Positions 17,227 through 38,488 of a DNA stretch of 64,000 bases are shown here, one piece after another. The translations under genes were made by a program, and so were the position numbers. Source of the stretch: Candidatus Yanofskybacteria bacterium (GTDB taxonomy: Bacteria > Patescibacteriota > Minisyncoccia > 2-02-FULL-40-12 > GWA2-44-9); the NCBI GenBank assembly GCA_003514055.1, contig DOSG01000001.1:24571-88570 (forward strand), read 5' to 3'. Under the pieces are notes generated by a model. The model saw only the letters and a list, made by a program, of their open reading frames with translations. It was not told the DNA's origin and did not search any database. Positions within the stretch are counted from its first letter, which is position 1; every line of letters begins with the position of its first letter.

Positions 17227-17227
17227 G

Positions 17228-18991: not shown

Positions 18992-19027
18992 TTTGCTCAC
19001 TTTCTGTCATAATGATAATAATTACTT

Positions 19028-20059: not shown

Positions 20060-20065
20060 TTCCCG

Positions 20066-20431: not shown

Positions 20432-20433
20432 GA

Positions 20434-21735
20434 TTACTCTATCGTTAGCACCTTGTCTTTAAGGACTATCCGGTTCTTAAGATGAGAGAGTATTTGACGC
20501 TTCTCATCTGTTGCTCCGGATTTTAATACGTGTTTGGCGTAATTTTTTATATCAAAATCTTGTAGTTTAAATTCTTGCCTCTCAATGCCTAGCATTGCCT
20601 GAAAGTTTTGATGCCGTTCGATATCTTCTTTGAGATGATTTCGGAGTCCCAACTCATCCAGACTCATCGTATCAATCAGACCAATGAGTTGAAGAATAAG
20701 ATCTTCTTCGCGAAGATAGGTGATGGGGCAATTAATATCTTTCGTCCGAGTACAGCCGTAGTAGATATAAGTGGCTATGCCACCGCCAGCGAGTTTCTTA
20801 TGTTTTTCTTGGGCCGTAACTCCCGAGCTACAATGTCCGCATCGCATGAGTCTGGTAAATGCGAAGTCCTTAGATAGGTAGCGGAACTCACTTTCCCGCT
20901 TCATTGCCTCGCGGGTGCGCAAGTACAACTCTTTACTGATAAGGGGTTCGTGCTGACCTTTGTACCAAGTACCGCTACCGGCAGGGTATTGGAATTCACC
21001 CATATAAAGAGAAGTACTCAATATTTTTTGAACACTAGAAACCCAGATCGGTTTGTTATGTATTGTCTGGAAATTTATTTCTCGCAACCATCGGTATACT
21101 TTTCGACCACTCCAACCGTCATTGCCAACCTTTTCGAACATCTGTGTGATAATCGGAGCACGCTCAGGATCGGGTATTATGTAACCCTTACGGTCCGTTC
21201 TCATTTCATTAAGATATCCAGTCGGAGCAGGACAAGGCCAGAGGCCCATCTCACACTTAGCCCGCAAGCCCCTTTTTACATTTACACCCTTCTGATCGTT
21301 TTCTAGTTTGCCTTGTGCCCCGAGAATCATGAATAGGAACTTCTCACTCGGGCTATTTGTGAATCTCTGGCCGTATGTCCGAATTTCTATTAGAAGCTTT
21401 TGATCCAGTAAGTCGACTATTGAACCCAAGTCTCCAGCGTTACGGCTGAGGCGGTCTGGTGCCCAAGAAAGGATGGCATTGAATTTATCGTTCTTAATAT
21501 CCTGAATCAGTCTATTAAACTCAGGCCGTTGTCCGGCCGCTTTGGCAGAATGGGATTCTTGTCTTACATCTGTCACTTGCAAGCCATCCTTTTGAGCCAG
21601 TTGGAGCATCTCCTTAATCTGGCTATCTATACTCATCGTCTGTCGCTCGTCCGATTCACTCGACTTGCGGGCATATAGACAGTACCGCAAAGACTCCCCA
21701 TAAGTCCCTAAATTGCCTTGTTGTGTGTTTTCCAT
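20434..21735 (-). CDS. large serine recombinase (resolvase/invertase catalytic domain + recombinase domain + zinc ribbon)
   Basis: YARKSSESD catalytic Ser region, ...DRLSRN, C-terminal CGHCSS...YYGCTR. Confidence 0.85.
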   Translation of the reverse strand: MENTQQGNLGTYGESLRYCLYARKSSESDERQTMSIDSQIKEMLQLAQKDGLQVTDVRQESHSAKAAGQRPEFNRLIQDIKNDKFNAILSWAPDRLSRNAGDLGSIVDLLDQKLLIEIRTYGQRFTNSPSEKFLFMILGAQGKLENDQKGVNVKRGLRAKCEMGLWPCPAPTGYLNEMRTDRKGYIIPDPERAPIITQMFEKVGNDGWSGRKVYRWLREINFQTIHNKPIWVSSVQKILSTSLYMGEFQYPAGSGTWYKGQHEPLISKELYLRTREAMKRESEFRYLSKDFAFTRLMRCGHCSSGVTAQEKHKKLAGGGIATYIYYGCTRTKDINCPITYLREEDLILQLIGLIDTMSLDELGLRNHLKEDIERHQNFQAMLGIERQEFKLQDFDIKNYAKHVLKSGATDEKRQILSHLKNRIVLKDKVLTIE

Positions 21736-21837
21736 ACCAACATTGATGACGCGACCTTGTTCTATCGTCCAGACCTGAGTTGGTAAGTTTTATTGTAAAG
21801 AAAGAGCCCGCGAAGACTTGCACGATTGTGTGGGTCT

Positions 21838-22030
21838 TTCACGGGCATATGTGCAGTAGTCAAATGGGAATTGAACCCATACTAACTTAGAAATTGAGCG
21901 TGGAGGGCATTTAATTCTCCAGTCCCCAGTTAAGGGGTCATATCCCGCCTTCCCTTCGTCGAAACGAAGAGGCGGGGCCTCAATCTCCGTAGAACAGCCG
22001 TGCTTCCATGACACTGTTGGCTACCGTACC
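21838..22030 (-). other. structured noncoding element next to recombinase (candidate att site or unidentified ncRNA)
   Basis: minus-strand tRNA-like T-arm ATGGG-TTCAATT-CCCAT; GNRA-capped hairpin CCCCGCCTCTTCG-TTTCGA-CGAAGGGAAGGCGGG; no ORF. Confidence 0.35.
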
Positions 22031-22120
22031 TATATATTAACATATCTTTTTACGATTGACAAGGTTGGCTAAATTTGTTAAAATCTCAACAATAGTAGCC
22101 CTTTTTCAAAGAGGTGATTC

Positions 22121-22939
22121 GTGAGAGCTCCATTGTATATCGGTGTGACGGGGTTTATGACCCCACAAGAAGTCCGTGCCGGCCTGCGGTGCTTTGAGGC
22201 ATCGTCAGACCGCAAGCTCATGGTGGGTGTGCTCGTCAGTTCCAAGACGCTCGTCGGCAAGATCAACAAGTGGCCTGGCCGTTATCCGAAAGTCGACAGC
22301 AGGATTACCGAGCTGTTCGAGAAACAGAAGCTCGACGCGTACAAGGTCTTCCAGCGACACGAATGCGCGGTCAACCTCATTCACTACAACACGGATGAGC
22401 CGAAGACGCTGTCTGAACAACTCATCAAACTCGCGCACATGTATGGTCCGAATCTCGACGGCTTCCAGCTCAACGTCGCGTGGCCGCACGTGAGCGAGAT
22501 CGAGAAGTTCCACGCGTCGACTCACTGGGAACAGCGTCTCGTCTTGCAGGTCGGTGGTCATGCGCTGGAGAAAGTCGACCACGACCCAAAGAAGCTCGCT
22601 GACATGATCAGTCACTACGGCGGTTCGGTCAGAGTGATCAACGACGTTCTCATCGATCCGAGCGGCGGCAAGGGCCAGCCCTTCGACGCCGAGAAAGCAC
22701 TCAGCTACCTGAAAGAGATTGCCAGCCGAGGGTTCGACATCAATCTCGGCGTCGCTGGCGGTCTCGGCCCAGACACCATGGCGTTGCTCAATCCGTTGCT
22801 GGATGACTTTCCTGATCTGAACATCGATGCGGAAGGTCAACTGCGCGACAAGGAGACGGACGACCTCGACATCATCAAGATGTCGTCCTACCTCACGCAG
22901 GCACAGCAGTGGTTCGCAACCACCAGTAAGGGGGCTTAG
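22121..22939 (+). CDS. TIM-barrel protein, TrpF/PRAI-like (tentative); GC-rich foreign gene
   Basis: IDPSGGKGQPFD and GVAGGLGPD resemble PRAI phosphate-binding motifs; ~58% GC. Confidence 0.45.
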   Translation: MRAPLYIGVTGFMTPQEVRAGLRCFEASSDRKLMVGVLVSSKTLVGKINKWPGRYPKVDSRITELFEKQKLDAYKVFQRHECAVNLIHYNTDEPKTLSEQLIKLAHMYGPNLDGFQLNVAWPHVSEIEKFHASTHWEQRLVLQVGGHALEKVDHDPKKLADMISHYGGSVRVINDVLIDPSGGKGQPFDAEKALSYLKEIASRGFDINLGVAGGLGPDTMALLNPLLDDFPDLNIDAEGQLRDKETDDLDIIKMSSYLTQAQQWFATTSKGA

Positions 22940-23000
22940 CCCCGCAAGAGAGATCCCGTACAGAAATGTACGATCTTCTGTGCGGGGCTCTTTTGTTTTA
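22937..23000. terminator. long bidirectional hairpin terminator between convergent genes
   Basis: GCCCCGCA...TGCGGGGC extended hairpin followed by TCTTTTGTTTT. Confidence 0.55.
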
Positions 23001-23017
23001 ATATAACTAAGTTAAGA

Positions 23018-23599
23018 TTACTTACCCTCAAGATCACTCTCTAAGGCTTTCCGTACTCGTTCTTTATGTGCTTCGGACTCTTTGACCCTTCGATCTATCC
23101 TCTCGTGTTCTCTCCGAATGGCTTCTTTAAGGTCTTTGGGAGTCATCTTGAAGGAGAACATCGGAGCGAACATATGAATCAAAGCCGCGGCTCGTTGCTT
23201 ATCTTCTTCAGGTGTAAGGTCATGCCATGTATTATCAACGCTGATGCCGTGGTCGTGCTTCATGTGTTCGGTGAACTCTTCTTTCCTATGAGTCTTAAGC
23301 CAAAAAATACTAGCCACAAGATTACCATCACCAATCTTCTTGATGATCTGGCTCTCAGCCATATCAGAAATGAAGTCTTTACCTTCTCTGCGAGATTCCT
23401 GAAAGACATCTGCAAAGATAGCATCATCTTTAATCCAACGGTATGCCGTTGATCGGCTTACACCGATACGAGTACACGCAATCTGGAGAACGGGTTGTTT
23501 GCGTAGCTCTATAACTAGTTCCTGTTTTTGTTTTAGTATTCGAGCGGCAATGGTTTCAGCTTTTTTATCCGTTTTGGTAGATTTTTGTTTCTTACCCAT
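23018..23599 (-). CDS. HTH protein, phage terminase small-subunit-like
   Basis: ACTRIGVSRSTAYRWIKDD helix-turn-helix; basic N-terminus; layout typical of TerS. Confidence 0.45.
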   Translation of the reverse strand: MGKKQKSTKTDKKAETIAARILKQKQELVIELRKQPVLQIACTRIGVSRSTAYRWIKDDAIFADVFQESRREGKDFISDMAESQIIKKIGDGNLVASIFWLKTHRKEEFTEHMKHDHGISVDNTWHDLTPEEDKQRAAALIHMFAPMFSFKMTPKDLKEAIRREHERIDRRVKESEAHKERVRKALESDLEGK

Positions 23600-23611
23600 A
23601 GGATAAATAGG

Positions 23612-24793
23612 TTAATTAATTTTTGTAGCTACTTTGCCAGTTAGTTTTTCCCAACGTGCCTTAATAACCTCGGCATAGGTCGGAGACTTCTCCATGAGGT
23701 AGCATCGACGACCAAGTTTGATTGATGCAATCAGCGTACTGCCTGAGCCGCCAAACGGCTCTACCACGAGGTCGCCACGCTTAGTAAGTACCTTGAGATA
23801 AGGAATGAGAACTTCAAGTGGCTTGGTACCGAAGATGATACCTTGCCCTGATGACTTTTCATCGGCGGCGATATGCTCAATGAAGTCAGTCGGACAAATC
23901 TGTTCGCCTTTTTTGTACCCCTCCCAGTGCGGTTTGCCCGCAGTGGCATAGAGGGCTGTCTCGTATTCGCTTTGGAAGAGTTCATCTGTTTCCGGTTCGG
24001 TATTCAGGGGAACATCTCCAGAAGTACCCACCACAGCGATGTCGCTTTTGTTGAAGAACTTATACTTAGCACTAAAGCCTTGAACCCTATTAGGGACATG
24101 CCAAATAATGGTGTTGCGATAGCGCCAATGCTTTTCCAATTCATTCCAGATAGTTCGAAGATTCTTCGGATTCTCAAAGATGATAATGGAGAAATCAGGC
24201 TTCTGTATTTTAGCTATACCAGCCATCCAAAGTTCAGTGAAGTTATCCGGCAGAGTATCTGTCTCTAAGTACTTACGGTTTTTCTTTAACCCAAAGCCTT
24301 CCACAGGCTTTCCATTTTTCGTCTTGCCTTTGAGGTAGTTTAAAATGTAAGGAGGATCAGTTAGACATAGGTCTGCTTTGTCTTTACCCATCAGTTTAAG
24401 CATCTCGGATTCTACAGTACTATCTCCACACCCAAGCCGACTGCCATCCAATTCATAGATGTCGCCCTTTTGTATTTTGACCTCCATGATATTGAGCTTT
24501 TCTAATTCTTTCTTGATGTTGAATTGCTCGGGAGTGGGGTCAACGGCAAATATGTTGTCGAGGCTTTGGCTATCAAATCCGATATCAGCGAGAAATGCCT
24601 CGTCAAAATCTTTTAAGAGGTCAAGATCAAACTCCCCAACATTTTTGTTTAGTCGGATTATAATCTCAGATTCCTTTTTGAGGTCTGATACAGTAATGTA
24701 GACAACAGGAACGTCTTTGATTCCCATCTCTTTCAATACTTTTGCTCTAAAGTTACCACCAATAATAATGTTCTTTCGATTGGGGGGCATCAT
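23612..24793 (-). CDS. ParB-like nuclease domain / DNA methyltransferase (DPPY), C-terminal major part of frameshifted gene
   Basis: LCLTDPPY motif IV, FGGSGST motif I; N-terminus continues ParB domain of 24753..24935. Confidence 0.75.
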   Translation of the reverse strand: MMPPNRKNIIIGGNFRAKVLKEMGIKDVPVVYITVSDLKKESEIIIRLNKNVGEFDLDLLKDFDEAFLADIGFDSQSLDNIFAVDPTPEQFNIKKELEKLNIMEVKIQKGDIYELDGSRLGCGDSTVESEMLKLMGKDKADLCLTDPPYILNYLKGKTKNGKPVEGFGLKKNRKYLETDTLPDNFTELWMAGIAKIQKPDFSIIIFENPKNLRTIWNELEKHWRYRNTIIWHVPNRVQGFSAKYKFFNKSDIAVVGTSGDVPLNTEPETDELFQSEYETALYATAGKPHWEGYKKGEQICPTDFIEHIAADEKSSGQGIIFGTKPLEVLIPYLKVLTKRGDLVVEPFGGSGSTLIASIKLGRRCYLMEKSPTYAEVIKARWEKLTGKVATKIN

Positions 24794-24935
24794 TTACAAT
24801 CAGTGGATCAATTATTCCATGACGATTGATACTTTCCTGAAGTTGTTCGGTGGCTTCTTTCGTCCAGCGTCTTGGATTTTTTTCTGGGTGACGAAGCGAT
24901 GCTAACGGTACGTAAACTATCTTGAGTTGTGACAT
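24753..24935 (-). CDS. ParB N-terminal fragment (same gene, upstream frame)
   Basis: VPLASLRHPEKNPRRW...IIDPLIVND; joins downstream frame if the G6 run at 24784-24789 were G5. Confidence 0.6.
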   Translation of the reverse strand: MSQLKIVYVPLASLRHPEKNPRRWTKEATEQLQESINRHGIIDPLIVNDAPQSKEHYYWW

Positions 24936-25450
24936 GACGGTACATAGGTTGTTATTTTATATGTCCGTTTAGGTATCAGTTTAGGTCTTCAAAAAGAGAA
25001 GACTCCCAATTGAATAGAGCGAGATCGACCAGATCGCTCAATACAATTTAGGGAGTCTGCTTAAGAATTATCCTCATTATATATCCACCCAAAAGATGAG
25101 CAATACCTAACTGTGGATAAGACCACATGTGTAAATACTGTCAATAACGTAAATTGGGCCACTGTTGGTAAGGCCCCTTCGCAACCCCTCAATACTAAGG
25201 TAGAAGGGAGGGTGGTCATTTAGCTCTCAAACTGCTAAAATACCCTTAACAATTCAGACCTAACCCCTAAGATTCGTCTCAGGATATGGTCAAAAATCCC
25301 GCTAGAGAATAAAAGACTCCTCGTCCGGAGTCGCTCTAGCGGGTCACGTCTCGAAAGGGATGTGGGTGAAGCCGAAAGGTTTCATCGCAACGGGCGGGGA
25401 GTCTTTTGCGTCCAGACTCTCTGTCTTGCACTTAAAACCCGCTAGAGTGC

Positions 25451-26011
25451 ATGCATAACAATATTCAACCCAAGGGCGACGCTCTTGGGTTTCTTGATTC
25501 TTATCCATCCGATAAGGAGACAATTATTTTACCTTCTGGGAGTTCAGTCGAGGTAAAGAAATATATCCTCAAGTTTAAAGCATGGCAGGGCGATAAGCCC
25601 GTTTTTGATTTTGGTCGAAAGCCGATTATTGATTTTGATGGCGAAGGTTGTTTTGCCGAGCTCGCAATATTACGAATGTTTTTGAAAAATGGCTGGCAGG
25701 GTGTTTGGGTTGAAGCATATGGCGGTACTCATTTTTTAAATTCTATGCCCACCAGCTGGTCACTTAAACCAGAACATATTTCTATACCTGAAGAAAAAGA
25801 AAAACTACTTAAGAGAATCTGGATGGCCGGTAAAACGAAAGCTTGTTTCGATGTAGTTGTTTGGCAAGATGACAAAATCCTATTTTGCGAAGCCAAACGA
25901 TCCAAAAAGGACCGTCTTACCAAAGCACAGGAAAAGTTTATCCAAGGCGTAATAACTTGCGGCATTCCATTGTCCGCACTCATTATTATCGAATGGGATT
26001 TCCAGCCATAA
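25451..26011 (+). CDS. VRR-NUC-like PD-(D/E)xK nuclease
   Basis: FDVVVWQDDKILFCEAKRSKKDRLTKAQ (D...E-x-K...Q). Confidence 0.55.
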   Translation: MHNNIQPKGDALGFLDSYPSDKETIILPSGSSVEVKKYILKFKAWQGDKPVFDFGRKPIIDFDGEGCFAELAILRMFLKNGWQGVWVEAYGGTHFLNSMPTSWSLKPEHISIPEEKEKLLKRIWMAGKTKACFDVVVWQDDKILFCEAKRSKKDRLTKAQEKFIQGVITCGIPLSALIIIEWDFQP

Positions 26012-26053
26012 AGGCCCTTTATCTAACAGAGAAATTAAGCTAAACTAGTATTA

Positions 26054-27970
26054 ATGAAGAAATCTCTCATAGAAGAACTACCTAAAATTGTTGCTGATGG
26101 CAGAAAAGAGGTTGAGGAGATTCTCGAACGGCTTTCAAGTACCAGTAAACTCGGGCTTCAAACAAATGAGCTTGTTCTGCCCGCTAAAGATACAGCTGGA
26201 CTTTTCCAAGGACAAGTAACCGAAGTAAATGAAAAAGAATGGATGAACCGACTTATCTACGGAGATAATCTTTTAGCTATGCAAGCATTGCTTGCAGGCG
26301 ATCCATCCAGTGGACTTCCTAGTATGCGAGGCAAGATTGATTTGATTTATATAGATCCACCATTTGATTCAAAGGCTGACTATCGCACGAAAGTGACTCT
26401 TCCTGGTGTTGATTTAGAGCAGAAGCCGACGGTTATCGAGCAATTTGCATATGCTGACACTTGGAAAGACGGCACAGTGTCATACTTAAAGATGCTCTAT
26501 CCTCGACTTGTATTAATGCGGGAACTTTTGTCTGATAAGGGAACAATCTATGTGCACATTGACTGGCATGTTGGGTGTTATGTTAGGGCATTATTAGATG
26601 ATGTCTTCGGGAAAAGTAATCTTATAAACGAGATTATTTGGAATAAAGGTTTCAGAGGCACTGAATCCAAGAAAATTTTTCAACATTCCCACGATTCGAT
26701 CTTCTTTTATGGGAAATCTCAAGATTATATATGGAATCAGCAAGGGCAACCATACAAAGATGAAAGTTTGGGAAGATATAATAAAATCGATGAGGAGGGG
26801 AAGAGATACGCAGAAATAAAAAGAGTTAGAACTGACGGGTCTATATACTATGGAAAAACTTACCCAAATGAGGATGGTAAAAAGATTAACGACGTTATCT
26901 CTCATGTCCCAACTATGGCATCTACCAATTCTGAGCGCATAGGTTACGATACCCAGAAACCCGAAGCTTTGTTGGAAATATTAATCAAATCTTCATCGAA
27001 TGAAGGCGATGTGGTTGCCGACTTTTTTGGTGGATCTGGCACTACTGCCGCAGCAGCAGAAAAACTTAATCGTAATTGGATTATTTCTGATCTTGGCAAG
27101 CCAGCGGCAATGATTATGAGGAAACGGTTAATTGACCAGAACTCAAAGCCATTTTTATACCAAGCCATCGGAGACTACCAAAAGGAGGTTTTCTCAAGCT
27201 CGAAAATGTATCGAAGAGTTGGGGATTTATCCCATGTTGTTCTCCAGTTATTTGGTGCAATACCTTTTGCTGACGTAGAGCAACACCAAAGGAATCTCGG
27301 CTACATTAAGGAGAGTAAAACATTAATTTTAGTAGATTCTCCAAACAAGATGACGGGTCTCGCAACCTTAAAACGTGCACAAGAATTACGCAATTCGTTT
27401 ATGGGTGGTTGGCAAAAAGTGGTAGTTCTGGGTTGGAATTTCACTTACGATATTACAGAAGCAATCCAATCACTTAATGACGATAAATTAGAAGTTTTGG
27501 TCATCCCTCCAGATCTATTAGATAAATTGAAAACAAAAGCTAGTTATAAAAATCTTGTAGATAGTGGAAAGGTGCGTTTTTCCTCACTACAATACTTGTC
27601 TCTCAAGCCAATCAGAAAAGAAAATACTACCAAAGAAAACGAAGAGCAGATTATAGTTCCATTGGATACCTACGTGCTTTTATCGCCAGATAATGTACCA
27701 CTTGATGACAAAGATAGAGAGAAGCTATCGGGAATCATTGCCAAAGATCCACTAGCTCTCATCGAGTATTGGAGCGTAGATCCTGATTACGATGGCGAAA
27801 CTTTTCGTAGTAGATGGCAAGATTATCGTGGCAATATAGAGAATGATAGAGATGAGCTTCATGTTATCCGAGAAGCCAGAATTATTGTGCCTAAAAAATC
27901 AAAACGAACCATAGCGGTTAAAGCCGTCGATGTTTTTGGTTTTGAAAGTGTTGTTATAAAAGAAATTTAG
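26054..27970 (+). CDS. mod: Type III restriction-modification Mod (N6-adenine/N4-cytosine methyltransferase, beta class)
   Basis: [10 protein letters not shown] (motif IV) precedes [10 protein letters not shown] (motif I); 638 aa; directly upstream of res. Confidence 0.85.
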
Positions 27971-27972
27971 CT

Positions 27973-30885
27973 ATGCCAACACCACTTAACATTGGGACAC
28001 GCGATGTCCCTCTCCGCCTTGCCAAAGTACTGACGGAAAAAGTTAATGAAGCATGGGCGAGCGGAGAAATATTATCCAAAGTTACACCAGTAACAAGAGA
28101 GTTACTGACTTTTTGGTTTAGTGAGTCTCATGTTGAAACTAGAAATATAAATTTTCACCAAGGGCAACGGCAAGCCATACTAAATACGATCTATCTGCAC
28201 GAGATTGTGGGTGTTAAAGCAGTCAAAGATATCTATGAAAATATAGAGTTTGAGCTTCTCTCGGAGCTCGATATGACTGAATTCAAGAAGCCAAAGTATG
28301 AAATTCCAAAATATGGAATAAAAATGGCCACGGGTACTGGGAAAACGTTAGTTATGAACGCTCTTTTGATTTGGCAATATTTGAATGCAAAATATGAAGA
28401 ACAGCCATCGGGGAGATATTCTAAAAATTTCTTGCTGGTCGCACCTGGGCTTATTGTGTATGAGCGACTTCTTGACGCATACCTTGGTAAAGAAGACGAG
28501 AACGGGGAGCGAGCATTTGAGACTTCTGATATATACAACTTTCGAGACTTATTCGCACCACTAAGTTTCCGTGAAGATATTTTTGGATTCATCCAAAATA
28601 ATGTGGCTCGCAAGCAAGAAATTGGTAGCAAGGTTACTGGGGCCGGTATCATTGCAATTGCCAACTGGCATCTGTTTATGGAAGAAGAGGAGCATGAAGA
28701 AAGTAGCACGCCACTAGATGATGTAAGTGGCATCATAAAGGATGTTTTTCCAATAAGACCTGGTGTGTCTGGAGGTAACTCTATAGATTCTTTGGATGCT
28801 CAGTATTTAAGCGGTAGAGAAATTGAATATCTTGCAAGTTTGCCGGATCTGGTTGCGTTTAATGATGAAGCTCATCACATCCACGAAAATAAATCATATG
28901 GAGAGGTAAAGGAAGTTGAATGGCAGAAGAGTCTTAATTCTATAGCAAAAAATAAGGGCTCCAAATTTATCCAAGTGGATTTTTCTGCTACCCCGTATGA
29001 TGTAACTGGTAGCGGACAAAATCGAGTTAAGCATTATTTCCCACATATAATTGTGGATTTTGACTTGAAAACAGCGATACGTTCCGGTCTCGTTAAGACG
29101 ATAGCTATTGATAAGAGAAAAGAGCTCACGGATTTGCCGTTGGAATTTAACGCCATAAGAGAAAACGGAGAAGTTATTGGATTGTCTGACGGTCAGAAAA
29201 TGATGTTGCGAGCAGGACTAAGTAAGTTGCGTATTCTAGAAAAGAGCTTTGTGGATTTTACGGCTGATAAGAATGGGGTTTCTAATAAACACCCCAAGAT
29301 GCTTGTTATGAGTGAGGATACGTCAGTTACTCCATTCATTGAGGATTTTTTGAGAAGTGAAGGTCTTAGTGAGGAAGATGTGATGCGAGTTGATTCTAAT
29401 AGAAAAGGCGAAGTATCAGAAGAGGAATGGTTTGAAATTAAACAACGCTTATTTAATATAGATAAACACTCGAGACCTAAAGTTATTGTCTCGGTCCTTA
29501 TGTTGCGTGAGGGATTTGATGTAAATAATATTTGCGTAATTGTACCTCTACGTTCTTCATCCGCACCTATTTTGCTTGAACAAACTATTGGTAGAGGTTT
29601 GCGTATTATGTGGCGTGAACCAGAGTTTGAGGAAATAAAATCAGAGAACAGGAGAAGACTTCTTGTCGAGAAAAAAGAACCAAATAGCTATATTGACCTA
29701 CTCACCATTATTGAGCATCCAGCCTTTATCCAATTTTATGACGAATTACTCAAGGAAGGTCTTCTTGGTGAGTTGGAGCATGATCCCAAAGGAGGACAAG
29801 TCCTCGGCGATATTATCAGAGTTGGCCTTAAATCAAACTACAAAGACTACGATTTGTCTTGGCCGGTGATTATTAAGGATGCCGACGAAGAACTAGTTGA
29901 GTCTGAAATTGATATAAATAAATTAGAAAAGTTTACTGCCTACGAAACAAAAGACTTAAAGAAGTTTTTCAGTAAAGATGGGGAGCAATTTATTTCCGAG
30001 GAGATGACCGTCAAAACTCGTTTTGGTGAGTATGTGGTTGATGCCAATCTTTTTAAATCACAGAGCTATAATGAATATCTTCAGAAAATAGTCGATTGCG
30101 TAGTGAATAGAATGGCAAGAATAAGCCAGAGAAAAAATAAGGTGTTTCCGGCGATGCAGATTAATAACGTCCTTATCGCCAAAACAATAGACAGGTATAT
30201 AAGAGAAAGACTTTTCGGTGAGCCATTTGACCCATTCGTTGATAATAATTGGAAAATACTGCTTCTAAAAAATGGTCTCATCACTAACCATATCGTAAAA
30301 GAAATTGGCAAAGCAATTTTTGAGATGCAACAGTCTGTCCAGCCAACTGAGGCAAAAGTGAACCATAATTATTTCTCAGGAATTAGTGAGTTGAGAATGC
30401 GCGAAAACTTTTCGCTACCAATTGTAAAAACTATCTATGAGCGTCTGCCATATCCATCAAATCGTGGCGGTTTTGAGAAAGATTTTATGGAGTATATCGA
30501 TGGAGATACTGCCGTTGAAAGCATTATGAAGGTCAATGAATACTATCACTCATTTGCAACAGTTCTATATATACGAACTGATGGTCTCATGGCAACGTAT
30601 TCTCCGGATTTTATAGTTAAAACTAAGGACAAGCTATACGTGATTGAAACTAAGGCCGAGAAAGATATTAATGATGAAAATGTTAAACAAAAACAGCTGG
30701 CTACTCTTGATTGGATAAAACGTATTAATTCTCTAGACGCAAAAGATAGGTCAGAACGCGAATGGGCGTACATTCTTTTGGGGGAAAATCACTTCTATAG
30801 CCTAAAGCAAAATAGTGCCTCCATCGAAGAGATCTGTGAGCTTGCTAGGGTTAAGGAGAATAAGGTTAGAGGAACCTTATTATAG
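27973..30885 (+). CDS. res: Type III restriction enzyme Res (SF2 helicase + PD-(D/E)xK endonuclease)
   Basis: ATGTGKT motif I, DEAHH motif II, C-terminal PDFIV...VIETKAEKD. Confidence 0.85.
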   Translation: MPTPLNIGTRDVPLRLAKVLTEKVNEAWASGEILSKVTPVTRELLTFWFSESHVETRNINFHQGQRQAILNTIYLHEIVGVKAVKDIYENIEFELLSELDMTEFKKPKYEIPKYGIKMATGTGKTLVMNALLIWQYLNAKYEEQPSGRYSKNFLLVAPGLIVYERLLDAYLGKEDENGERAFETSDIYNFRDLFAPLSFREDIFGFIQNNVARKQEIGSKVTGAGIIAIANWHLFMEEEEHEESSTPLDDVSGIIKDVFPIRPGVSGGNSIDSLDAQYLSGREIEYLASLPDLVAFNDEAHHIHENKSYGEVKEVEWQKSLNSIAKNKGSKFIQVDFSATPYDVTGSGQNRVKHYFPHIIVDFDLKTAIRSGLVKTIAIDKRKELTDLPLEFNAIRENGEVIGLSDGQKMMLRAGLSKLRILEKSFVDFTADKNGVSNKHPKMLVMSEDTSVTPFIEDFLRSEGLSEEDVMRVDSNRKGEVSEEEWFEIKQRLFNIDKHSRPKVIVSVLMLREGFDVNNICVIVPLRSSSAPILLEQTIGRGLRIMWREPEFEEIKSENRRRLLVEKKEPNSYIDLLTIIEHPAFIQFYDELLKEGLLGELEHDPKGGQVLGDIIRVGLKSNYKDYDLSWPVIIKDADEELVESEIDINKLEKFTAYETKDLKKFFSKDGEQFISEEMTVKTRFGEYVVDANLFKSQSYNEYLQKIVDCVVNRMARISQRKNKVFPAMQINNVLIAKTIDRYIRERLFGEPFDPFVDNNWKILLLKNGLITNHIVKEIGKAIFEMQQSVQPTEAKVNHNYFSGISELRMRENFSLPIVKTIYERLPYPSNRGGFEKDFMEYIDGDTAVESIMKVNEYYHSFATVLYIRTDGLMATYSPDFIVKTKDKLYVIETKAEKDINDENVKQKQLATLDWIKRINSLDAKDRSEREWAYILLGENHFYSLKQNSASIEEICELARVKENKVRGTLL

Positions 30886-30888
30886 CTT

Positions 30889-31431
30889 TTACTTTCGAAG
30901 ATTTAGGTTGATTAATCTAAATCTCATTGCATTTTCACTCACTTGATATTTCTCAGCTAGCTTTTCTAGTTCAACCTCAGTAAAACCATCTTTGGCAATA
31001 TTTATAAAATCTTTAGATAGTAAGCTTTGAGGCATAAGTAGTGCTGCCGCAAACATGTTTGCATGTCTTTCGGTGGGTGTCCTCATTATTTCTTTTTTAT
31101 TGTCTCTATAATCAACAAAAGCATCTTTCCTTGGATGCAAAAAATAGTGCCCCAACTCATGGGCAATAGTGAACCTCTGTCTTACTGGAGCTTCATTACT
31201 ATTTACTCCAATCAAAGCGTGTCCATTTTTTCTGATGAGTAGTCCCGAGAAATCTTTACTTGGTGCACGACTTATCTTTATTCCGTGTCGCGTAGCGATA
31301 TCTTCTACGGGAATTGGTAATGTTTTACTTTCTAAATCGCTCAGTATCTTTTCAACTTCTGACTCAATTTTTTCTAAAATCATAATATTATTTTCAATCT
31401 TTAAAAAGTATTGCTGCCCATTTGGCTGCAT
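30889..31431 (-). CDS. ImmA/IrrE-family zinc metallopeptidase
   Basis: TIAHELGHYFLH (HExxH). Confidence 0.8.
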   Translation of the reverse strand: MQPNGQQYFLKIENNIMILEKIESEVEKILSDLESKTLPIPVEDIATRHGIKISRAPSKDFSGLLIRKNGHALIGVNSNEAPVRQRFTIAHELGHYFLHPRKDAFVDYRDNKKEIMRTPTERHANMFAAALLMPQSLLSKDFINIAKDGFTEVELEKLAEKYQVSENAMRFRLINLNLRK

Positions 31432-31741
31432 TTTTGTCCTCCTGAGCTACTTTATGGAGGTCGACCTTAGTTAATGCAAAACCATCCGGTATAGCAGGAA
31501 AGAAATCTTTTATATCGCAATGAAATAATGTCGCAAGTTTCCATAAAGATACAGCCGATATGTTATTTCTTCCTGTTTCAATATGAGTCACCGCTTCGCG
31601 GGAGATGCCAAGCTTCTTAGCTATTTGTGATGCACTCAAATTCAACTTCTTGCGCATCTCGCGTACTCTCTTGGCAATATCTGCCTTGATTTCAGCGTCT
31701 GTGGCGTCCTTAGGATTAATTATATCTTTTTTCTTTTGCAT
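31394..31741 (-). CDS. XRE-family HTH transcriptional regulator
   Basis: LSASQIAKKLGISREAVTHIETGRNNISAVSLWKLA; overlaps ImmA start. Confidence 0.8.
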   Translation of the reverse strand: MQKKKDIINPKDATDAEIKADIAKRVREMRKKLNLSASQIAKKLGISREAVTHIETGRNNISAVSLWKLATLFHCDIKDFFPAIPDGFALTKVDLHKVAQEDKNAAKWAAILFKD

Positions 31742-31938
31742 CTTTAATAGGCTGATGTTGGTAACTTGTTATAGATTATACCGATTGTTATTAATTGTAC
31801 CCATTATGTTATCTCAGGTAACATCTGGTACATCTAATTCCCTTGATATGGTATCAACTCTAGGTGTAGAATTCAAGTATACAAACTAATCAGCCCCGAT
31901 GCCAAGCCGCAATGCGTGCAAAGCACAGGACTAAAGCC

Positions 31939-32211
31939 ATGAGCGAAGACAAAAAACACGACGGGGGCGACAATAAGGACACAATCATTATTGTAAACGC
32001 CAGGGAGAAGGTCTGGAATAAGAAGGAGATATCGTACGAGGAGGTCATCGTACTAGCCTTCGGTTCGTATTCCAATGACGAGAATGTTGTTTATACTGTG
32101 ACATTCTCAAAGGGCGAAAATCCTCATCACGAAGGGTCGATGGTAAGGGGGGACGTTGTTAAAGTTAAGAAAGGTATGATATTCAATGTCACACAGACTA
32201 ATAAATCGTAA
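31939..32211 (+). CDS. small beta-grasp (ubiquitin/ThiS-like, multiubiquitin-type) protein, candidate Ubl
   Basis: TIIIVNAREK...ISYEEVIVLAF...GDVVKVKKGMIFNVTQT pattern; overlaps start of E1 gene; start at 2nd ATG with AGGA RBS. Confidence 0.45.
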   Translation: MSEDKKHDGGDNKDTIIIVNAREKVWNKKEISYEEVIVLAFGSYSNDENVVYTVTFSKGENPHHEGSMVRGDVVKVKKGMIFNVTQTNKS

Positions 32212-33367
32212 TTCTGACCTATTAAGGCTCAGAAGTGAAGGGTATGATATCGAGGTAAAGAACGGGCATCTTTTGGCTCATCATATTCCATATGTCAATT
32301 CGAAAAAGGAGATCGCTTTCGGGGTTCTTGTCACCCCGCTTGGCGATCTAGCTGGGGATAAAACGACCAAGCCACAAGATCACGTGATCCATTTTCATGG
32401 CGAACATCCTTGTGATAAAGAAGGACTGGTTATAAAAGGGATCCAACATTCGAGCGAAAAGAAAACTCTGGTAGAAGGAGTCGAAGTTGACCACTCTTTC
32501 TCTAATAAGCCGACCGATGGCTATCCAGATTACTATGAAAAAATAGCCACCTACGCAAAAATAATTTCTGCACCCGCTGAATCAATTGATCACTCCGTTA
32601 CGGCCAAGGTATTTAGGCCGGTGAGGACAGATAATGATCCGGATGAGGTTTTTAATTATTTGGATTCAAATTCAAGTAGGGCAGAAATTCAGAACATCAC
32701 TTCTAAACTTCAGAACCTTAAGATAGCCATCATCGGTTTAGGGGGTACGGGTTCATATGTATTGGATTTTGTCTCTAAGACGCCAGTTAAGGAAATCCAT
32801 ATTTTTGATCAAGACGGCTTCCTCTCTCACAATGCTTTTCGCGCTCCCGGAGCGCCTGCGATCGAAACGTTAGAATTGCAACCAAAGAAAGTGGCTTATC
32901 TGCATGGCGTTTACTCAAAGATGCATAAATATATTACGCCTCATGAGTACCACCTTACCGCCGAAGTTTCTGAAGAATTATCGGGAATGGATTTTGTTTT
33001 TATATGCGTAGACAAGGGGGAAAGTAAAAAGTTAATCGTCGATAAGTTAGAAGAAAAGAAGATTCCCTTCATAGACGTTGGGGTTGGTATTGAAGCTGTC
33101 GGTGGCAAGTTAACTGGAAGTGTTCGGACTACCGCAGTTACGGAAGGCAAAAACGACCATATTGATAAAAGAATTTCTTTTGCCGATAATGGAAGTGAAG
33201 ACTATCATAATAATATCCAAATAGCAGAGTTGAACGCACTTAATGCCGCTTTTGCTGTTATAAAATGGAAAAAGATTTTTGGTGTCTATCATGATTTTGG
33301 GAATGAGCACGATTCCGTCTATAGCATCAATGTTAACCAGCTAATCAACAATGACGTTATCTCATAA
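32186..33367 (+). CDS. E1-like (ThiF/MoeB) adenylyltransferase with ~175-aa N-terminal extension (candidate E2-like domain; Cap2/BubCD-like)
   Basis: IAIIGLGGTGSYV Rossmann, IFDQDGFLSHNAFR, FVFICVDKGES; N-terminal HFHGEHPC candidate catalytic-Cys motif. Confidence 0.65.
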   Translation: MSHRLINRNSDLLRLRSEGYDIEVKNGHLLAHHIPYVNSKKEIAFGVLVTPLGDLAGDKTTKPQDHVIHFHGEHPCDKEGLVIKGIQHSSEKKTLVEGVEVDHSFSNKPTDGYPDYYEKIATYAKIISAPAESIDHSVTAKVFRPVRTDNDPDEVFNYLDSNSSRAEIQNITSKLQNLKIAIIGLGGTGSYVLDFVSKTPVKEIHIFDQDGFLSHNAFRAPGAPAIETLELQPKKVAYLHGVYSKMHKYITPHEYHLTAEVSEELSGMDFVFICVDKGESKKLIVDKLEEKKIPFIDVGVGIEAVGGKLTGSVRTTAVTEGKNDHIDKRISFADNGSEDYHNNIQIAELNALNAAFAVIKWKKIFGVYHDFGNEHDSVYSINVNQLINNDVIS

Positions 33368-33731
33368 ATTTGTACAAAATATACCGGAACATTTAGATGA
33401 TGGGGTAATTTATGTTTCTATAGAGTACGCCACGGCCATCCACAAATGTTGTTGTGGATGTGGCAATGAAGTTGTCACCCCTTTTTCCCCAACTGATTGG
33501 GAATTGATATTTAACGGTGAGGCAATCTCCCTATATCCATCGATTGGGAATTGGAATTTTAAATGCCAGTCGCACTATTGGATCACCAATGACGCTGTTG
33601 AGTGGGCACCTAAGTGGTCTAAACGCCAGATTGAAGAAGGTAATAAAAGAGACCAGAAAGTTAAGGGTGCATATTATAGAAAAGATAAAGGACGTAAATC
33701 ATTACTTGATTTTCTGAAGATTAGATTCTAG
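33351..33731 (+). CDS. small Cys-rich (CCCGCG...C..H) protein, operon partner of E1
   Basis: 126 aa, overlaps E1 stop; HKCCCGCGNE and FKCQSHYW potential metal ligands. Confidence 0.45.
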   Translation: MTLSHKFVQNIPEHLDDGVIYVSIEYATAIHKCCCGCGNEVVTPFSPTDWELIFNGEAISLYPSIGNWNFKCQSHYWITNDAVEWAPKWSKRQIEEGNKRDQKVKGAYYRKDKGRKSLLDFLKIRF

Positions 33732-33987
33732 TTTAGATCTAGTTTTTTGCCAGCACTCAATAGGACGTTCTTAAGTCCTTTTTATACTGTCGCATTTGTC
33801 TCATTTACCCCGACCAAGGAGCTTCGTTTAGTCGCTGGCTAAAGCTCTCAAAAACCTTTAGAATACCCCTAACAGCCTCGTACTAGACATACGAGTCCAG
33901 CAAGCGAACGTAGGTGAGCGCAGTGCCCAGCGCCAGTAGGCGGTAGGTATTAAATTTAGATAGGTTATTTCACTCGAGACATAAATT

Positions 33988-34542
33988 ATGAGCTTAGAAA
34001 ATCCCAATTCTGATAGAGAGGAGCTAATTAGGGCAGTTTTAGAATATGGAAATCGATTAATTGAATCGTCTATGGAGATGATATCCGTGTTGCCGTTCGA
34101 GATTAAAGGAGAAAAATTTACTTTGGTATATGGAATATTCCCAAGAGAGTCTGGTAATGTGTGGGTAAGAGTTGGGTTGTTTAATGATTATCAAGGCGCT
34201 AAATTAGAAAATGGAAGCAGTTTTAACGTAGGAGAGATTTCAATGACACGGTTAATGTTTAATCTTGAATCCAGTAGCGTGCATGGAGAATTCGGTACAG
34301 ATGAGAAATATGAAGGTAGGGGATTTGGCAGCGCTCTCTTGTACTTAAGAGACGGTATCATTAAAGACATTATAAAAAAATATAAAGATAAGTTTTCATC
34401 AAGTTTATTAAGAAGTGAAATCGCAGATAATTCTCGGGCACAAAGCGAGAATAGGCAACATGATGGGCTAACAACTTTTCTCGCCAAAAAAATGGGATAT
34501 ACAAAGGAAGGCGAAAAACTAGTTAAAGATTATATTATTTAG
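33988..34542 (+). CDS. hypothetical protein
   Basis: 184-aa ORF preceded by conserved noncoding element X2. Confidence 0.45.
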   Translation: MSLENPNSDREELIRAVLEYGNRLIESSMEMISVLPFEIKGEKFTLVYGIFPRESGNVWVRVGLFNDYQGAKLENGSSFNVGEISMTRLMFNLESSSVHGEFGTDEKYEGRGFGSALLYLRDGIIKDIIKKYKDKFSSSLLRSEIADNSRAQSENRQHDGLTTFLAKKMGYTKEGEKLVKDYII

Positions 34543-34576
34543 CCTGCTCGAGACGGTCAGTAAATATTTTACTATT

Positions 34577-35194
34577 ATGGCAGCACCGATAACCCACATA
34601 GTTTTAGCCAATAAAGTTTTTTCTAAAGAATTTCCACTTTTTTCTAGGGAAAAATTTTTTGTTGGGACTAGTTTCCCGGATATAAGGTATCTTGGAGTAA
34701 TTGAAAGAAGTAAGACGCATTTTACAAGCCCCCTGTTGGCAGATATTAAGAAAGAGAACGATGCCCAGGCAGGTATGATGTTTCATTCATTCGTAGATGG
34801 AGTCAGGGAAAAAGTTTTGAAGGAAGCTGGGATATACAAGATGATTCCGAAGAATGGGATTAGTATCCAAACACTCAAGCTGTTGGAGGATGAGGTCTTG
34901 TACAATAAAATAGAAGACTGGAAAGTCATTGCTTCTTATTTTGATTCCATACTGGCAGAGGAGCTAGCCTATCCAATAGGCGAAGATTCTATAAAAAGAT
35001 GGCACAATGCACTGCAACATTATTTCGTGGAAGGCCCTAATGCGGGGAGTAGAAAAGTTCTATTTACGGAAATGAATTTTAGCGACGAGAATACTTTTGA
35101 GACAGAAGAAATTTTAGCAGAGATGAGGCAAAATGATAAAATCATAGATATGATAAATGATTTCTATAATAAGTTTGGAGAAAAGATAAACTAG
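34577..35194 (+). CDS. hypothetical protein
   Basis: 205-aa ORF. Confidence 0.45.
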   Translation: MAAPITHIVLANKVFSKEFPLFSREKFFVGTSFPDIRYLGVIERSKTHFTSPLLADIKKENDAQAGMMFHSFVDGVREKVLKEAGIYKMIPKNGISIQTLKLLEDEVLYNKIEDWKVIASYFDSILAEELAYPIGEDSIKRWHNALQHYFVEGPNAGSRKVLFTEMNFSDENTFETEEILAEMRQNDKIIDMINDFYNKFGEKIN

Positions 35195-35215
35195 CCTGCC
35201 CGAGAAGAGCTGCCT

Positions 35216-35692
35216 ATGATCATAAGAATTGCTCAAGAAAAAGATTTGGGAGATATCAAAGAAATCTATTCTTTATATTACGATGATCAGAAAGATCTCG
35301 AGCACTTTTTAAATCGAGTAAGAGAAGCTATCAATCGATCAGATATCGCCCAACAGTGGGACTTTCATTATTTGGTAGCAGAAATTGATAATAGAGTTCT
35401 TGGATTGATTGGTTTTTGTAAGCCACTTAAAAAGTTGCTATCATTTACCAAGACATCAAGGCCAGTCGAACTGTACAGTCTTTTTGTAAAAGAGAAATTT
35501 AAAGGAATCGGGCGCCCGCTCCTTGAAGAAATGACCAAACAAGTTAAGGAAGCTGGATATACAGAGATAGTTGTATACAGCGACGAAAAATGGAGTGATA
35601 GTTGGGGGTTTTACGATAAGCTCGGCTTCGCAAGAGTTGGCAAGCTCGATGTTAGCGGAAACGGTCAAGTTTGGACAATAGCTTTAAATTAG
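35216..35692 (+). CDS. GNAT-family N-acetyltransferase
   Basis: FKGIGRPLLEEM...GY acetyl-CoA-binding motif. Confidence 0.7.
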   Translation: MIIRIAQEKDLGDIKEIYSLYYDDQKDLEHFLNRVREAINRSDIAQQWDFHYLVAEIDNRVLGLIGFCKPLKKLLSFTKTSRPVELYSLFVKEKFKGIGRPLLEEMTKQVKEAGYTEIVVYSDEKWSDSWGFYDKLGFARVGKLDVSGNGQVWTIALN

Positions 35693-35815
35693 ACAGAAGT
35701 AGCGGTGCCCGAGATGCATTGTTTGTGATAAGACTTGAATAGCTAAAATAACCTTGTTGGGCTTGACCCGTTAGGGGTTCGAGCTCGACTTGGCCAGCAA
35801 AAAAATTTTTAAAGC

Positions 35816-36346
35816 ATGAAATATTTTGTCGGATACATCATTGAAGGAGAAGCAGTAGATTACTATAAGACTTTAGGCGAGGATTTATCAAAGCGTTTTG
35901 GCGTGAAAAATATATCACTAACCAAGCCTTTACATATGACTTTTAAGGCTCCTTTTGAATCAGATGATATCAAGCCTTTCGATAAGCGATTAAGGGAATT
36001 AGCACAAAGAGAGGCTATACCGTTCGTATTAAATAAATTTGGACGTTTCGGAGACTATGACTTAACAATATATTTAGCTCCAGCCGGGAATGAGATCCTT
36101 CAAAAAAACGTAGACGAGATCGCGAATGCTATTTATGAATTTGGAGATAAAAGATTACCAACCCATCTTCCGATTCGTCTCCACGCGTCCATCGCGCGCT
36201 ATCTTAGCCCGGAATTGGCAAAAAAAGTTTGGGAATATCTTGAGACACTTCCCGCTCCTCATTTTGAATTAAGTTTTAATAATATAGCCCTATTTATACA
36301 TAGCGAAGACCGCTGGAGCGTGGAATCTAGGTATCCCTTTAAATAG
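35816..36346 (+). CDS. 2H phosphoesterase (LigT / 2'-5' RNA ligase-like)
   Basis: two H-x-[TS]-x motifs: PLHMTFKA and LHASIA. Confidence 0.65.
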   Translation: MKYFVGYIIEGEAVDYYKTLGEDLSKRFGVKNISLTKPLHMTFKAPFESDDIKPFDKRLRELAQREAIPFVLNKFGRFGDYDLTIYLAPAGNEILQKNVDEIANAIYEFGDKRLPTHLPIRLHASIARYLSPELAKKVWEYLETLPAPHFELSFNNIALFIHSEDRWSVESRYPFK

Positions 36347-36429
36347 ACCAGTCCGGCGACATCGACAATAGGGCGCTCGCTCGGCGGGCCCTTATTGTTC
36401 TTGTGGAGAAATGCCAGTATCGTTCCAAC

Positions 36430-36451
36430 TTCGAATCCAGGCCCCACAGCA
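36430..36451 (+). other. degenerate copy of tRNA-Gln 3' end (T-loop + acceptor), possible att remnant
   Basis: TTCGAATCCAGGCCCCACAGCA vs tRNA-Gln 2906-2928 TTCGAATCCAGGTCCCGCAGCCA (19/23). Confidence 0.4.
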
Positions 36452-36674
36452 CTATGATTGACCTAGTCAGCGTATTATAGTATAATCTTGGAATCATGAA
36501 TATTGCCCAGAATAACAATACGTTGAATACGGTTGCCACTTATAAGAAAAGCGTCTTTTCGGCTTATTTGACCAAGATTTTTTTGAAGTAATATTATTTG
36601 CAAAAGCGCCTTGGCCAGATTGGCCGAGGCGCTTTTTTTGTTGCCAACTGGAGAACTTTAACAAGGAGGTAGTC

Positions 36675-37535: not shown

Positions 37536-37572
37536 GTAAATAAAAAACGGGCGGCCTGGTGGCCGCCCGTTG
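37536..37572 (-). terminator. repeat-family-A terminator (minus strand) after small paralog 1
   Basis: ACGGGCGGCC-tggt-GGCCGCCCGT with T-run on minus; identical copy at 38439-38464. Confidence 0.65.
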
Positions 37573-37594
37573 GTGTACCTGATGCTGGGGCTGA

Positions 37595-38464: not shown

Positions 38465-38488
38465 GGCACCTATGGTGCTTGGCGCTAA

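Follow-up and report, generated by a model that had tools for sequence, protein, structure and literature searches.

We analysed a 64,000-nt stretch of genomic DNA (hereafter the window) from Candidatus Yanofskybacteria, a groundwater bacterium of the Patescibacteria, or candidate phyla radiation (CPR). We conclude that a 17.6-kb region of it (18847–36450), which is bounded by partial copies of a tRNA-Gln gene and encloses the housekeeping gene mltG, is a decayed copy of an integrative element from a large family specific to the Patescibacteria, and we put the probability of this explanation as a whole at roughly two in three. Members of the family carry a cassette of four genes on one strand and in fixed order, namely a DNA methylase (one or two copies), a small-terminase-like protein (TerS), a large terminase (TerL; one or two copies) and, after 0–8 kb of variable DNA, a large serine recombinase (LSR). 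The minus strand of the window holds the methylase, TerS, a gap of 1.28 kb and the LSR, and this copy is probably now immobile. An initial annotation, made from the DNA letters alone, had proposed a mobile-element-derived defence island of about 16 kb running from the recombinase to a tRNA-like fragment (20434–36451). The proposal is borne out by the cassette family and by direct repeats of tRNA-Gln, and its right edge stands, but the left edge lies 1.6 kb further left, at a tRNA-Gln fragment (18847–18870) and not at the recombinase. Every gene listed in that annotation is present according to Pfam, PADLOC, PHROGs and NCBIfam, from which all gene identities were taken; RNAs were identified with ARAGORN and Rfam.

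Direct repeats of tRNA-Gln bound an island that encloses mltG

An intact tRNA-Gln(CTG) gene lies at 2855–2928 on the plus strand (ARAGORN, Rfam) and is identical to the tRNA-Gln of a relative (L133; related loci are numbered with the prefix L). It is the probable integration target, on the attL side of a tandem array. Two further copies of its 3′ end, both starting at the T-loop, follow on the plus strand. The nearer one, fragB (18847–18870), has the tRNA-Gln 3′ end sequence GTTCGAATCGTAGCTCGGCAGCCA and is followed by an element-type trailer with a hairpin at 18964–18989, the whole feature spanning 18847–18988. The farther one, fragC (36430–36450), matches tRNA-Gln positions 2906–2926 at 19 of 21 bases on the same strand, a match that did not arise once in 100 shuffles, and then runs into the motif TGACCTAG; the whole feature (36430–36466), seen in an alignment and a motif scan, is the right boundary. 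The tRNA-Gln 3′-end copy that the initial annotation had seen here is therefore real, and the att-type boundary is genuine. From left to right, the layout is tRNA-Gln, a first island without a recombinase (island A, 2929–18846), fragB with its trailer, mltG, a small open reading frame (ORF121), the convergent LSR, the cassette remnant, the defence cargo and fragC. A generic repeat search over 18.5–40 kb and mismatch-limited tRNA scans had missed fragB, which surfaced through homology to relatives; fragC was without a partner in that repeat search since the tRNA-Gln gene lies outside it.

FragB and its trailer align with the tRNA-Gln 3′ half and trailer that lie beside the cassette of L053 (81.8% identity over 143 nt, E 3e-34). 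Between the window organism and the L053 species FtsX is only 66% identical, and because non-coding DNA is 82% identical between species whose FtsX has diverged that far, the fragB trailer more likely travels with the element than with the host. The intact tRNA-Gln has a trailer of its own (2929–3005, plus strand) with a hairpin and the motif TATCGAGGTAGACC (2939–2952), which also lies 9–13 nt downstream of LSR-facing tRNAs in L053, L060, L064, L065 and L072. In the looser form TAYCGRGG..GACC the motif is found 9–13 nt past tRNAs of differing identity (Gln, Asp, Ser), most of them facing an LSR.

Within the repeat-bounded segment, mltG (YceG; 19028–20059, plus strand; Pfam E 7e-69), which is presumably needed by the cell, is followed after 6 nt by ORF121 (20066–20431, plus strand), and this in turn abuts the LSR stop codon with 2 nt between them. 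ORF121 matched no family in Pfam, PHROG or NCBIfam, and a sequence search of the PDB gave nothing useful. Its position is variable, being held by unrelated genes in relatives (d322 in L053, a DUF4238 gene in L135 and ORF120 in L133).

The same neighbourhood is arranged differently from one relative to the next. In L133 (mltG 67% identical) the order is FtsE, FtsX, the identical tRNA-Gln, a stretch resembling the trailer, mltG, an unrelated ORF of 120 aa and, convergent with these, an LSR (57%), and the cargo beyond the LSR is quite different from that of the window (bAvd, AAA_5, VWA). L131 (mltG 69%) has LSR, TerS and methylase on one strand, then HNH, KAP NTPase and GmrSD genes, after which come a degenerate tRNA-Gln-like piece, read by eye, and mltG. 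L134 (mltG 84%) matches the window with 88% identity over the 86 nt that lead up to mltG, and homology ends at the mltG stop codon. L135, which has the closest LSR (95%), shares nucleotide homology only from the LSR stop codon to 54 nt upstream of its start, together with a stretch of 89 nt whose counterpart in the window immediately precedes mltG; following up this stretch led to fragB. Conserved synteny of the whole block with no boundary repeats had been named in advance as the pattern that would speak against an island; what we find is synteny that breaks at the mltG stop codon (L134) or the LSR stop codon (L135), cargo that differs in L131, L133 and L135, and three direct repeats. Composition does not define the boundaries, as GC content and codon usage are patchy across the whole window (including 2.9–45 kb); the range of 20–37 kb, for which a check of composition had been suggested, includes a GC-rich ORF with a GC content at third codon positions (GC3) of 0.75.

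The recombinase belongs to a CPR cassette family

The LSR (20434–21735, minus strand) is full length, with Resolvase (PF00239, E 5e-23), Recombinase (PF07508, E 2e-12) and Zn_ribbon_recom (PF13408, E 2e-6) domains, and it keeps all of the 100+ columns that are invariant in a 17-member alignment, including the R23/S25 motif. We infer that it catalyses attP × attB integration at tRNA sites. The suggested comparison with phage integrases gave a clear PHROG integrase match (E 2e-63), and the nearest annotated phage integrases are only 24–29% identical. Homologues number in the thousands (at least 8000 candidates), the best 120 of them being 55–95% identical, and among these 120 all that carry a source name come from CPR lineages. 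The closest LSR is that of L135 (95%), and L053 (85%) and L057 (71%) have full cassettes. For 30 of 73 LSRs the stop codon has the end of a convergent, unrelated ORF within 40 nt of it, and the DNA on the stop side of the LSR is therefore also variable.

A scan of IMG/VR with an alignment of LSRs yielded 71 further loci, where a viral-contig scan with a single LSR sequence had found nothing; the family loci were read up to 10 kb on each side, and most of them are from contigs with an existing prediction as viral. Next to the LSRs of 85% and 71% identity, the genes are a ParB_N-methylase, a small protein, TerL (Terminase_6C) and LSR, and then host genes. When the ORFs were clustered, the LSR was present in 77 loci, the methylase cluster in 67, TerS in 59 and TerL in 55, and in some of the loci that seem to be without TerL a diverged TerL occupies its slot. 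The nearest annotated phage TerL proteins are those of Mu-like phages (26–29% identical). Other than the cassette genes, no gene family is common within these loci. Variable cargo, largely restriction–modification and other defence genes, lies on both sides of the LSR, and the recurrent neighbours are HsdM (16 loci), HsdR (11), Type III res (10), HsdS (7), reverse transcriptase (7), DUF2779/Cas4-like (6) and PLD-SNF2 (4). When 129 representative neighbour ORFs were scanned against PHROGs, nucleases, helicases and one 'tail protein' match were seen, and no recurrent portal or capsid family, among the best 25 of 160 families.

Cassettes also occur in tandem on one contig, where a complete unit between two LSR stop codons measures 16.7 kb and contains methylases and proteins of no known function on the opposite strand, with no recognised structural gene. 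The paired LSRs on contigs that have two are 57–86% identical, and such contigs are thus arrays of different elements. About 25 loci have a tRNA beyond the LSR stop codon, on the opposite strand and with its 3′ end facing the LSR, at a distance of 94–186 nt in five loci and 0.75–5.6 kb in the others. In the closest LSR relatives with this arrangement (L053, L057, L066, L099, L106 and L117) the tRNA is always tRNA-Gln. The window shares this trait, since fragB with its L053-like trailer is a tRNA 3′ copy beyond the LSR stop codon on the opposite strand. It departs from the family in gene order, in that methylase (frameshifted), TerS and LSR stand in the right succession and TerL is absent. Literature searches found no description of the cassette, which is not proof that none exists, and we regard the methylase–TerS–TerL–LSR family as large, Patescibacteria-specific and apparently undescribed.

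The window copy has lost TerL and an intact methylase

In the initial annotation an integrase and a TerS-like protein without a large terminase had been likened to a phage satellite or a decayed prophage. The family shows that this gene content is indeed a decayed state, because TerL stands between TerS and LSR in 55 of about 77 related loci. No TerL remnant was found in the window by tblastn, and the DNA in the TerL slot has no nucleotide relative in 76 related loci. This DNA comprises a spacer and one gene. The spacer (21736–22120, 385 nt) is non-coding and structured, folding better than its shuffles (z −4.6 and −3.9), and has neither an Rfam family nor a homologue in the 76 loci; with no Rfam match, its identification with a known RNA was dropped. 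A T-loop scan of its minus strand picked out, at 21856–21880, a piece that resembles a tRNA T-arm and acceptor strand, ATGGG-TTCAATT-CCCAT-TTGACTAC, possibly a scar left by the replacement of TerL.

The gene in the slot, ORF272 (22121–22939, plus strand), has a GC content of 0.57 and a GC3 of 0.75, and weakly matches the NCBIfam model of phosphoribosylanthranilate isomerase (PRAI, TrpF-like). It had been called a GC-rich foreign gene, a label in need of correction, as ORF272 belongs to a CPR-wide chromosomal family. The family has 663 homologues of about 250 aa across the CPR, no Pfam model and the same weak PRAI-like signature, and its members in L129 and L130 lie in ordinary chromosomal contexts; a PDB sequence search gave nothing useful. 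Import from outside the CPR was dropped for this reason, and ORF272 is, as judged from sequence, a captured CPR gene.

TerS (23018–23599, minus strand) is 38–46% identical to the gene that precedes TerL in relatives. Its label comes from a weak family score (PHROG small terminase, E 3e-9) backed by homologues and context. The ParB_N-N6/N4 DNA methylase (23612–24935, minus strand; Pfam, PADLOC, PHROG) is frameshifted: the frame breaks in a run of six C at 24782–24787, and intact 447-aa homologues align across the two frames. The length of this run is the same in all assemblies, and both simple decay and phase variation are conceivable.

A LOOT RNA precedes the nuclease and Type III genes

A full-length LOOT RNA (Rfam RF03000; 25257–25383, plus strand) scores 77.5 bits against a gathering score of 46.4. 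A promoter-like site lies just before it (25213–25241), and a VRR-NUC ORF starts 68 nt after it. With a model built on the window copy and on the copies that Rfam found (in 7 of the first 10 related loci), LOOT was located in 24 of 77 sources, that is, the window and 23 loci, or about one-third, so it is not an obligatory part of the element; it is absent from three unrelated mltG loci. In nearly every case it runs antisense to the cassette, and it takes one of three positions: upstream of the methylase gene, immediately in front of the LSR or immediately behind it. Most loci have a small ORF of variable kind (VRR-NUC-like, OB-fold/zinc-ribbon, GIY-YIG and others) 5–90 nt downstream of LOOT, and the order LOOT, small ORF, mod, res recurs in L067. 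From this arrangement, the LOOT copy in the window is probably the 5′ leader of a nuclease/Type III restriction–modification (R-M) operon. To our knowledge, all earlier descriptions of LOOT come from environmental sequence that was unclassified. In Rfam it is entered as an sRNA gene, and in these elements it lies between a promoter-like site and a variable ORF and is tied to one element family.

Defence cargo

The cargo looks complete at the level of predicted domains, with LOOT, VRR-NUC and Type III R-M in one group and a Bub operon in another. The VRR-NUC or PD-(D/E)xK nuclease-like gene (25451–26011, plus strand) has a weak Pfam match (E 0.003), and homologues, genomic context and predicted fold support the label. 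The residues D134...E147-x-K149, the D...E-x-K motif expected on a restriction-endonuclease-like fold, are invariant in 42 homologues, and the AlphaFold model (predicted local distance difference test score 93.5) has as its best fold matches the FAN1 VRR-NUC domain and Hjc, with weak E-values. It is followed on the same strand by Type III mod (26054–27970; PADLOC MTase_III, E 6e-78, 261 bits) and Type III res (27973–30885; REase_III, E 5e-29, and ResIII, with a C-terminal endonuclease-like region).

Next to these, the plus-strand segment 31912–33731 is a predicted Type II Bub operon with BubA (31912–32211; Multi_ubiq, PF14452), BubBD (32186–33367; a DUF6791 E2-like domain, PF20590, and a ThiF E1 domain, PF00899) and BubE (33351–33731; DUF6527, PF20137) in order, all from Pfam, and it also matches NCBIfam PRK06153 with 571 bits. 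Divergent from it are an ImmA/M78 peptidase (30889–31431, minus strand) and an XRE helix-turn-helix protein (31394–31741, minus strand), both identified with Pfam. CapH/CapP regulators frequently accompany Type II Bub operons, and mobile or defence loci are a common setting for them (PMC11601596). The initial annotation had listed XRE/ImmA as an item of its own; by analogy with those operons the pair is best read as CapH-like (XRE) and CapP-like (M78) regulators of the Bub genes, not as phage immunity genes (PMC11601596). Anti-phage activity has not yet been shown for any Bub operon (PMC11601596). The cargo ends with four further plus-strand genes (33988–36346), which are ORFs of 184 and 205 aa with no PHROG, PADLOC, NCBIfam or PDB match, a GNAT acetyltransferase (35216–35692) and a 2H phosphoesterase (35816–36346), the last two from Pfam.

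Source population and the search for an empty site

The mltG protein of the window is identical to that of 'Candidatus Yanofskybacteria bacterium GW2011_GWF1_44_227', and the same DNA is present in several metagenome-assembled genomes and metagenome contigs from the Rifle aquifer (for example GCA_001794775.1, GCA_003483035.1 and JGI 3300025095). Compared base by base, eleven contigs of this population, which together cover 10.1–47.5 kb of the window, are 100% identical to it wherever they overlap; therefore, the population offers no polymorphism and no empty site. Exact-protein look-ups with mltG, LSR, ORF121 and a right-flank ORF returned only contigs that are likewise 100% identical to the window. 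Among one-genome-per-species contigs no synteny was seen around the relatives of mltG, which there are at most 63% identical. Of what the proposed comparison with related genomes was to deliver, then, the tRNA-Gln 3′ repeats were found and the empty site was not.

Two exact-pattern scans of metagenomes, one with the junction of tRNA-Gln and right flank and the other with only the right flank, had 0 matches and are uninformative. A 36-nt exact pattern that is present in JGI contig Ga0208977_1000013 (L041) also gave 0 matches in the metagenome_contigs scan. Negatives from this collection are untrustworthy for the window organism because it does not contain the window's own JGI contig. One further contig, assembled with MEGAHIT (ENA ERZ27254746 k141_351432; L002/L006), is duplicated in inverted orientation around a pivot some 100 bp upstream of mltG and is most likely an assembly artefact.

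Weighing the explanations

We propose the following course of events. The LSR would have joined the element's own site, made up of a tRNA-Gln 3′ end and trailer, to the T-loop region of the host tRNA-Gln, and the original tRNA 3′ end would thereby have been displaced to the opposite end of the element; the tandem array of two islands would then stem from another insertion at that tRNA-Gln. Intact members of the family, with their own TerS and TerL and no recognisable capsid genes, probably spread like phage satellites in the capsids of helpers. Because TerL is gone, the methylase is frameshifted and mltG is enclosed, the window copy most likely persists only as a defence island, with LOOT-led VRR-NUC and Type III R-M genes, a CapH/CapP-controlled Bub operon, GNAT, 2H and two genes of no known family.

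Several observations weigh against this reading. There is no direct evidence of movement, as neither an empty site nor an excised circle was found. A housekeeping gene, mltG, sits together with ORF121 inside the repeat-bounded segment, and the L134 mltG has no LSR within 600 nt downstream. We know of no case in which serine recombinases need or make repeats of 20–140 nt. The repeats themselves fit imperfectly, in that fragB is mismatched for pairing with the 5′ half of today's tRNA and has diverged further than fragC, at odds with an order in which the newest island lies nearest the tRNA, and the TAYCGRGG..GACC motif also stands at a tRNA-Asp in L130 with no LSR nearby. For the family, the loci showed no sign of a replication module, and the lack of recurrent portal or capsid genes applies to 10 kb on either side of the cassettes, so that structural genes may lie further out.

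The last point bears on whether the cassettes are instead the packaging and integration ends of temperate CPR phages, so that the window would hold an ordinary decayed prophage whose structural genes lay beyond 10 kb and were lost together with TerL. TerS, TerL, ParB-methylase and serine integrase are typical phage genes, IMG/VR classes the 71 related contigs as viral, units of 22–37 kb are seen on some two-LSR contigs, and there is the single 'tail protein' match. However, in most loci the LSR comes directly after TerL, antisense defence cargo occupies the opposite flank of the cassette, portal and capsid families do not recur and a complete 16.7-kb unit has none, and the nearest annotated phage TerL and integrases are only 24–29% identical, all of which makes a prophage improbable in our judgement. 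We give still less weight to a recombination hotspot beside tRNA-Gln that gathered defence genes piecemeal, with the LSR a relic or acting otherwise, by inversion or by cassette exchange at LOOT-marked junctions. The wholly different cargo of L133 and the window despite their common order of mltG, small ORF and LSR would suit a hotspot, as would the variable genes on both sides of the LSR, the position of LOOT at cassette/cargo junctions in three places and the patchy composition over 2.9–45 kb, but a fixed four-gene cassette with fixed orientation to tRNAs, tandem distinct LSR units (57–86%) and tRNA-derived direct repeats are hallmarks of site-specific integration.

A different question is where the boundaries lie. 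It is conceivable, though on balance less likely, that mltG and the fragment and trailer upstream of it are host DNA, that fragB is the right end of island A, and that an LSR element of roughly the extent first proposed (~20060–36450) was inserted separately downstream of mltG. The 88% identity to L134 over the last 86 nt before mltG and the end of homology at the mltG stop codon speak for such an insertion; mltG identities of 84%, 69% and 67% behave as for a vertically inherited gene; and the 16.0 kb from the LSR stop codon to fragC is near the 16.5–16.7-kb units of tandem contigs. On the other hand, the trailer next to mltG shares 82% identity with a trailer that is linked to the LSR in a distant species (L053), the gaps of 6 nt (mltG–ORF121) and 2 nt (ORF121–LSR) leave no room for an att site, the DNA beyond fragC on its right bears no relation to the sequence after mltG in L134, and L133 repeats the order tRNA-Gln, trailer, mltG, small ORF, LSR. 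We lean, short of a decision, towards the island of 18847–36450 that includes mltG, which would have been captured between trailer and LSR in an ancestor.

Neighbouring features

Island A (15.9 kb), between the intact tRNA-Gln and fragB, is defined by its flanking direct repeats, and its genes according to Pfam are a GC-rich AAA+ operon, an NadE/NadD fusion, PurA, a hydrolase, a nucleotidyltransferase and an ABC1 kinase. The GC-rich operon, at the start of the island, has four minus-strand genes, an AAA+ ATPase (3018–4955) and three of no known function, with GC3 of 0.53–0.60. Further along, the block 14790–17563 (proteins of 230 aa and 110 aa, the ABC1 kinase and 111 aa) has its counterpart at 13723–16487 of L131, with proteins 77–95% identical. 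L131 is from another species of Parcubacteria whose mltG is only 68–69% identical and in which the block lies on the other side of mltG, and the comparison suggests a recent transfer or rearrangement.

Directly after fragC, a sigma-70-type promoter one base off consensus (TTGACC-17 nt-TATAAT, 36458–36486) and a strong hairpin terminator (36602–36639) frame a unit of about 145 nt (36458–36639 in all), in which a possible leaderless ORF of 31 codons was noted by eye. Just to the right of the island are two GC-rich paralogous minus-strand genes of no family (37595–37999 and 38489–38959; GC3 0.64–0.75), each with a near-identical hairpin, AAAARACGGGCGGCCTGGTGGCCGCCCGTTGG, just downstream (37542–37573 and 38435–38466).

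Implications and comparison with known systems

A large part of bacterial diversity belongs to the CPR, whose members mostly have no CRISPR and are considered to depend on restriction–modification. How they acquire and exchange defence genes is poorly known, and one very abundant element family would be a concrete vehicle for this and a handle on the biology of CPR phage satellites. For the orphan LOOT motif, the results provide a group of hosts, a constant genomic context and a role that can be tested. The family is also a large set of diverged serine integrases, for part of which the neighbouring tRNA suggests a candidate natural target, and it is thus of interest for genome engineering. By itself, the island in the window is rather unremarkable, a decayed integrative element in use as a defence island. 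Of more interest are the family and its connection with LOOT, of which literature searches found no description (not proof that none exists). We raise only tentatively the wider idea of a CPR-wide class of satellites and defence islands with their own terminase, packaged in helper capsids, integrating by LSR at tRNA 3′ ends, stacking in tandem and using LOOT as a cassette leader or regulator. If it were true, the enclosed mltG would lock the island into the Yanofskybacteria chromosome.

The Bub genes of the window resemble published Type II Bub operons with CapH/CapP in gene set and order, in the divergent XRE and M78 pair and in their mobile or defence locus, and differ in lying in a CPR genome (PMC11601596). 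The element as a whole resembles phage satellites, such as phage-inducible chromosomal islands (PICI) and Staphylococcus aureus pathogenicity islands (SaPI), capsid-forming PICI (cf-PICI) and the PICI-like elements (PLE) of Vibrio, in being integrated, about 16–18 kb long and flanked by att sites, and in having an integrase and one or more packaging genes, anti-phage cargo and, as read to 10 kb on either side of the cassettes, no full virion set. PLE reportedly also uses a large serine recombinase (PMC6002521). The CPR family differs in that its members carry both TerS and TerL and that the host is a CPR bacterium, and the window copy in that it has no TerL. The initial annotation had called the region PICI-like, which holds as far as a satellite-like element fits the family, with no recurrent structural genes within 10 kb. 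It does not hold for the rest of a PICI gene set, as neither primase or replicase, nor AlpA/Stl-type regulators, nor capsid-remodelling genes were found among the island ORFs with Pfam and PHROG. The integrase at one end and att repeats at both ends that are typical of PICI are present in the window (LSR, fragB and fragC), but the integrase is of the serine and not the tyrosine type, and of packaging genes the window has only the TerS-like one where relatives have TerS and TerL.

Large-serine-recombinase integration modules are familiar from the temperate phages phiC31, Bxb1, A118, TP901-1 and SPbeta. The window LSR has the same Resolvase, Recombinase and zinc ribbon architecture and likewise lies at one end of its element, but it is only 24–29% identical to annotated phage integrases and adjoins tRNA 3′ ends with tRNA-derived direct repeats. 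A location at a tRNA 3′ end with such repeats is the usual signature of tyrosine integrases. The tycheposons of Prochlorococcus are reportedly islands stacked at one tRNA and split by partial copies of its 3′ end, in a small, streamlined genome. The element in the window differs from these in having a serine rather than a tyrosine recombinase and in carrying a terminase cassette and a LOOT RNA.

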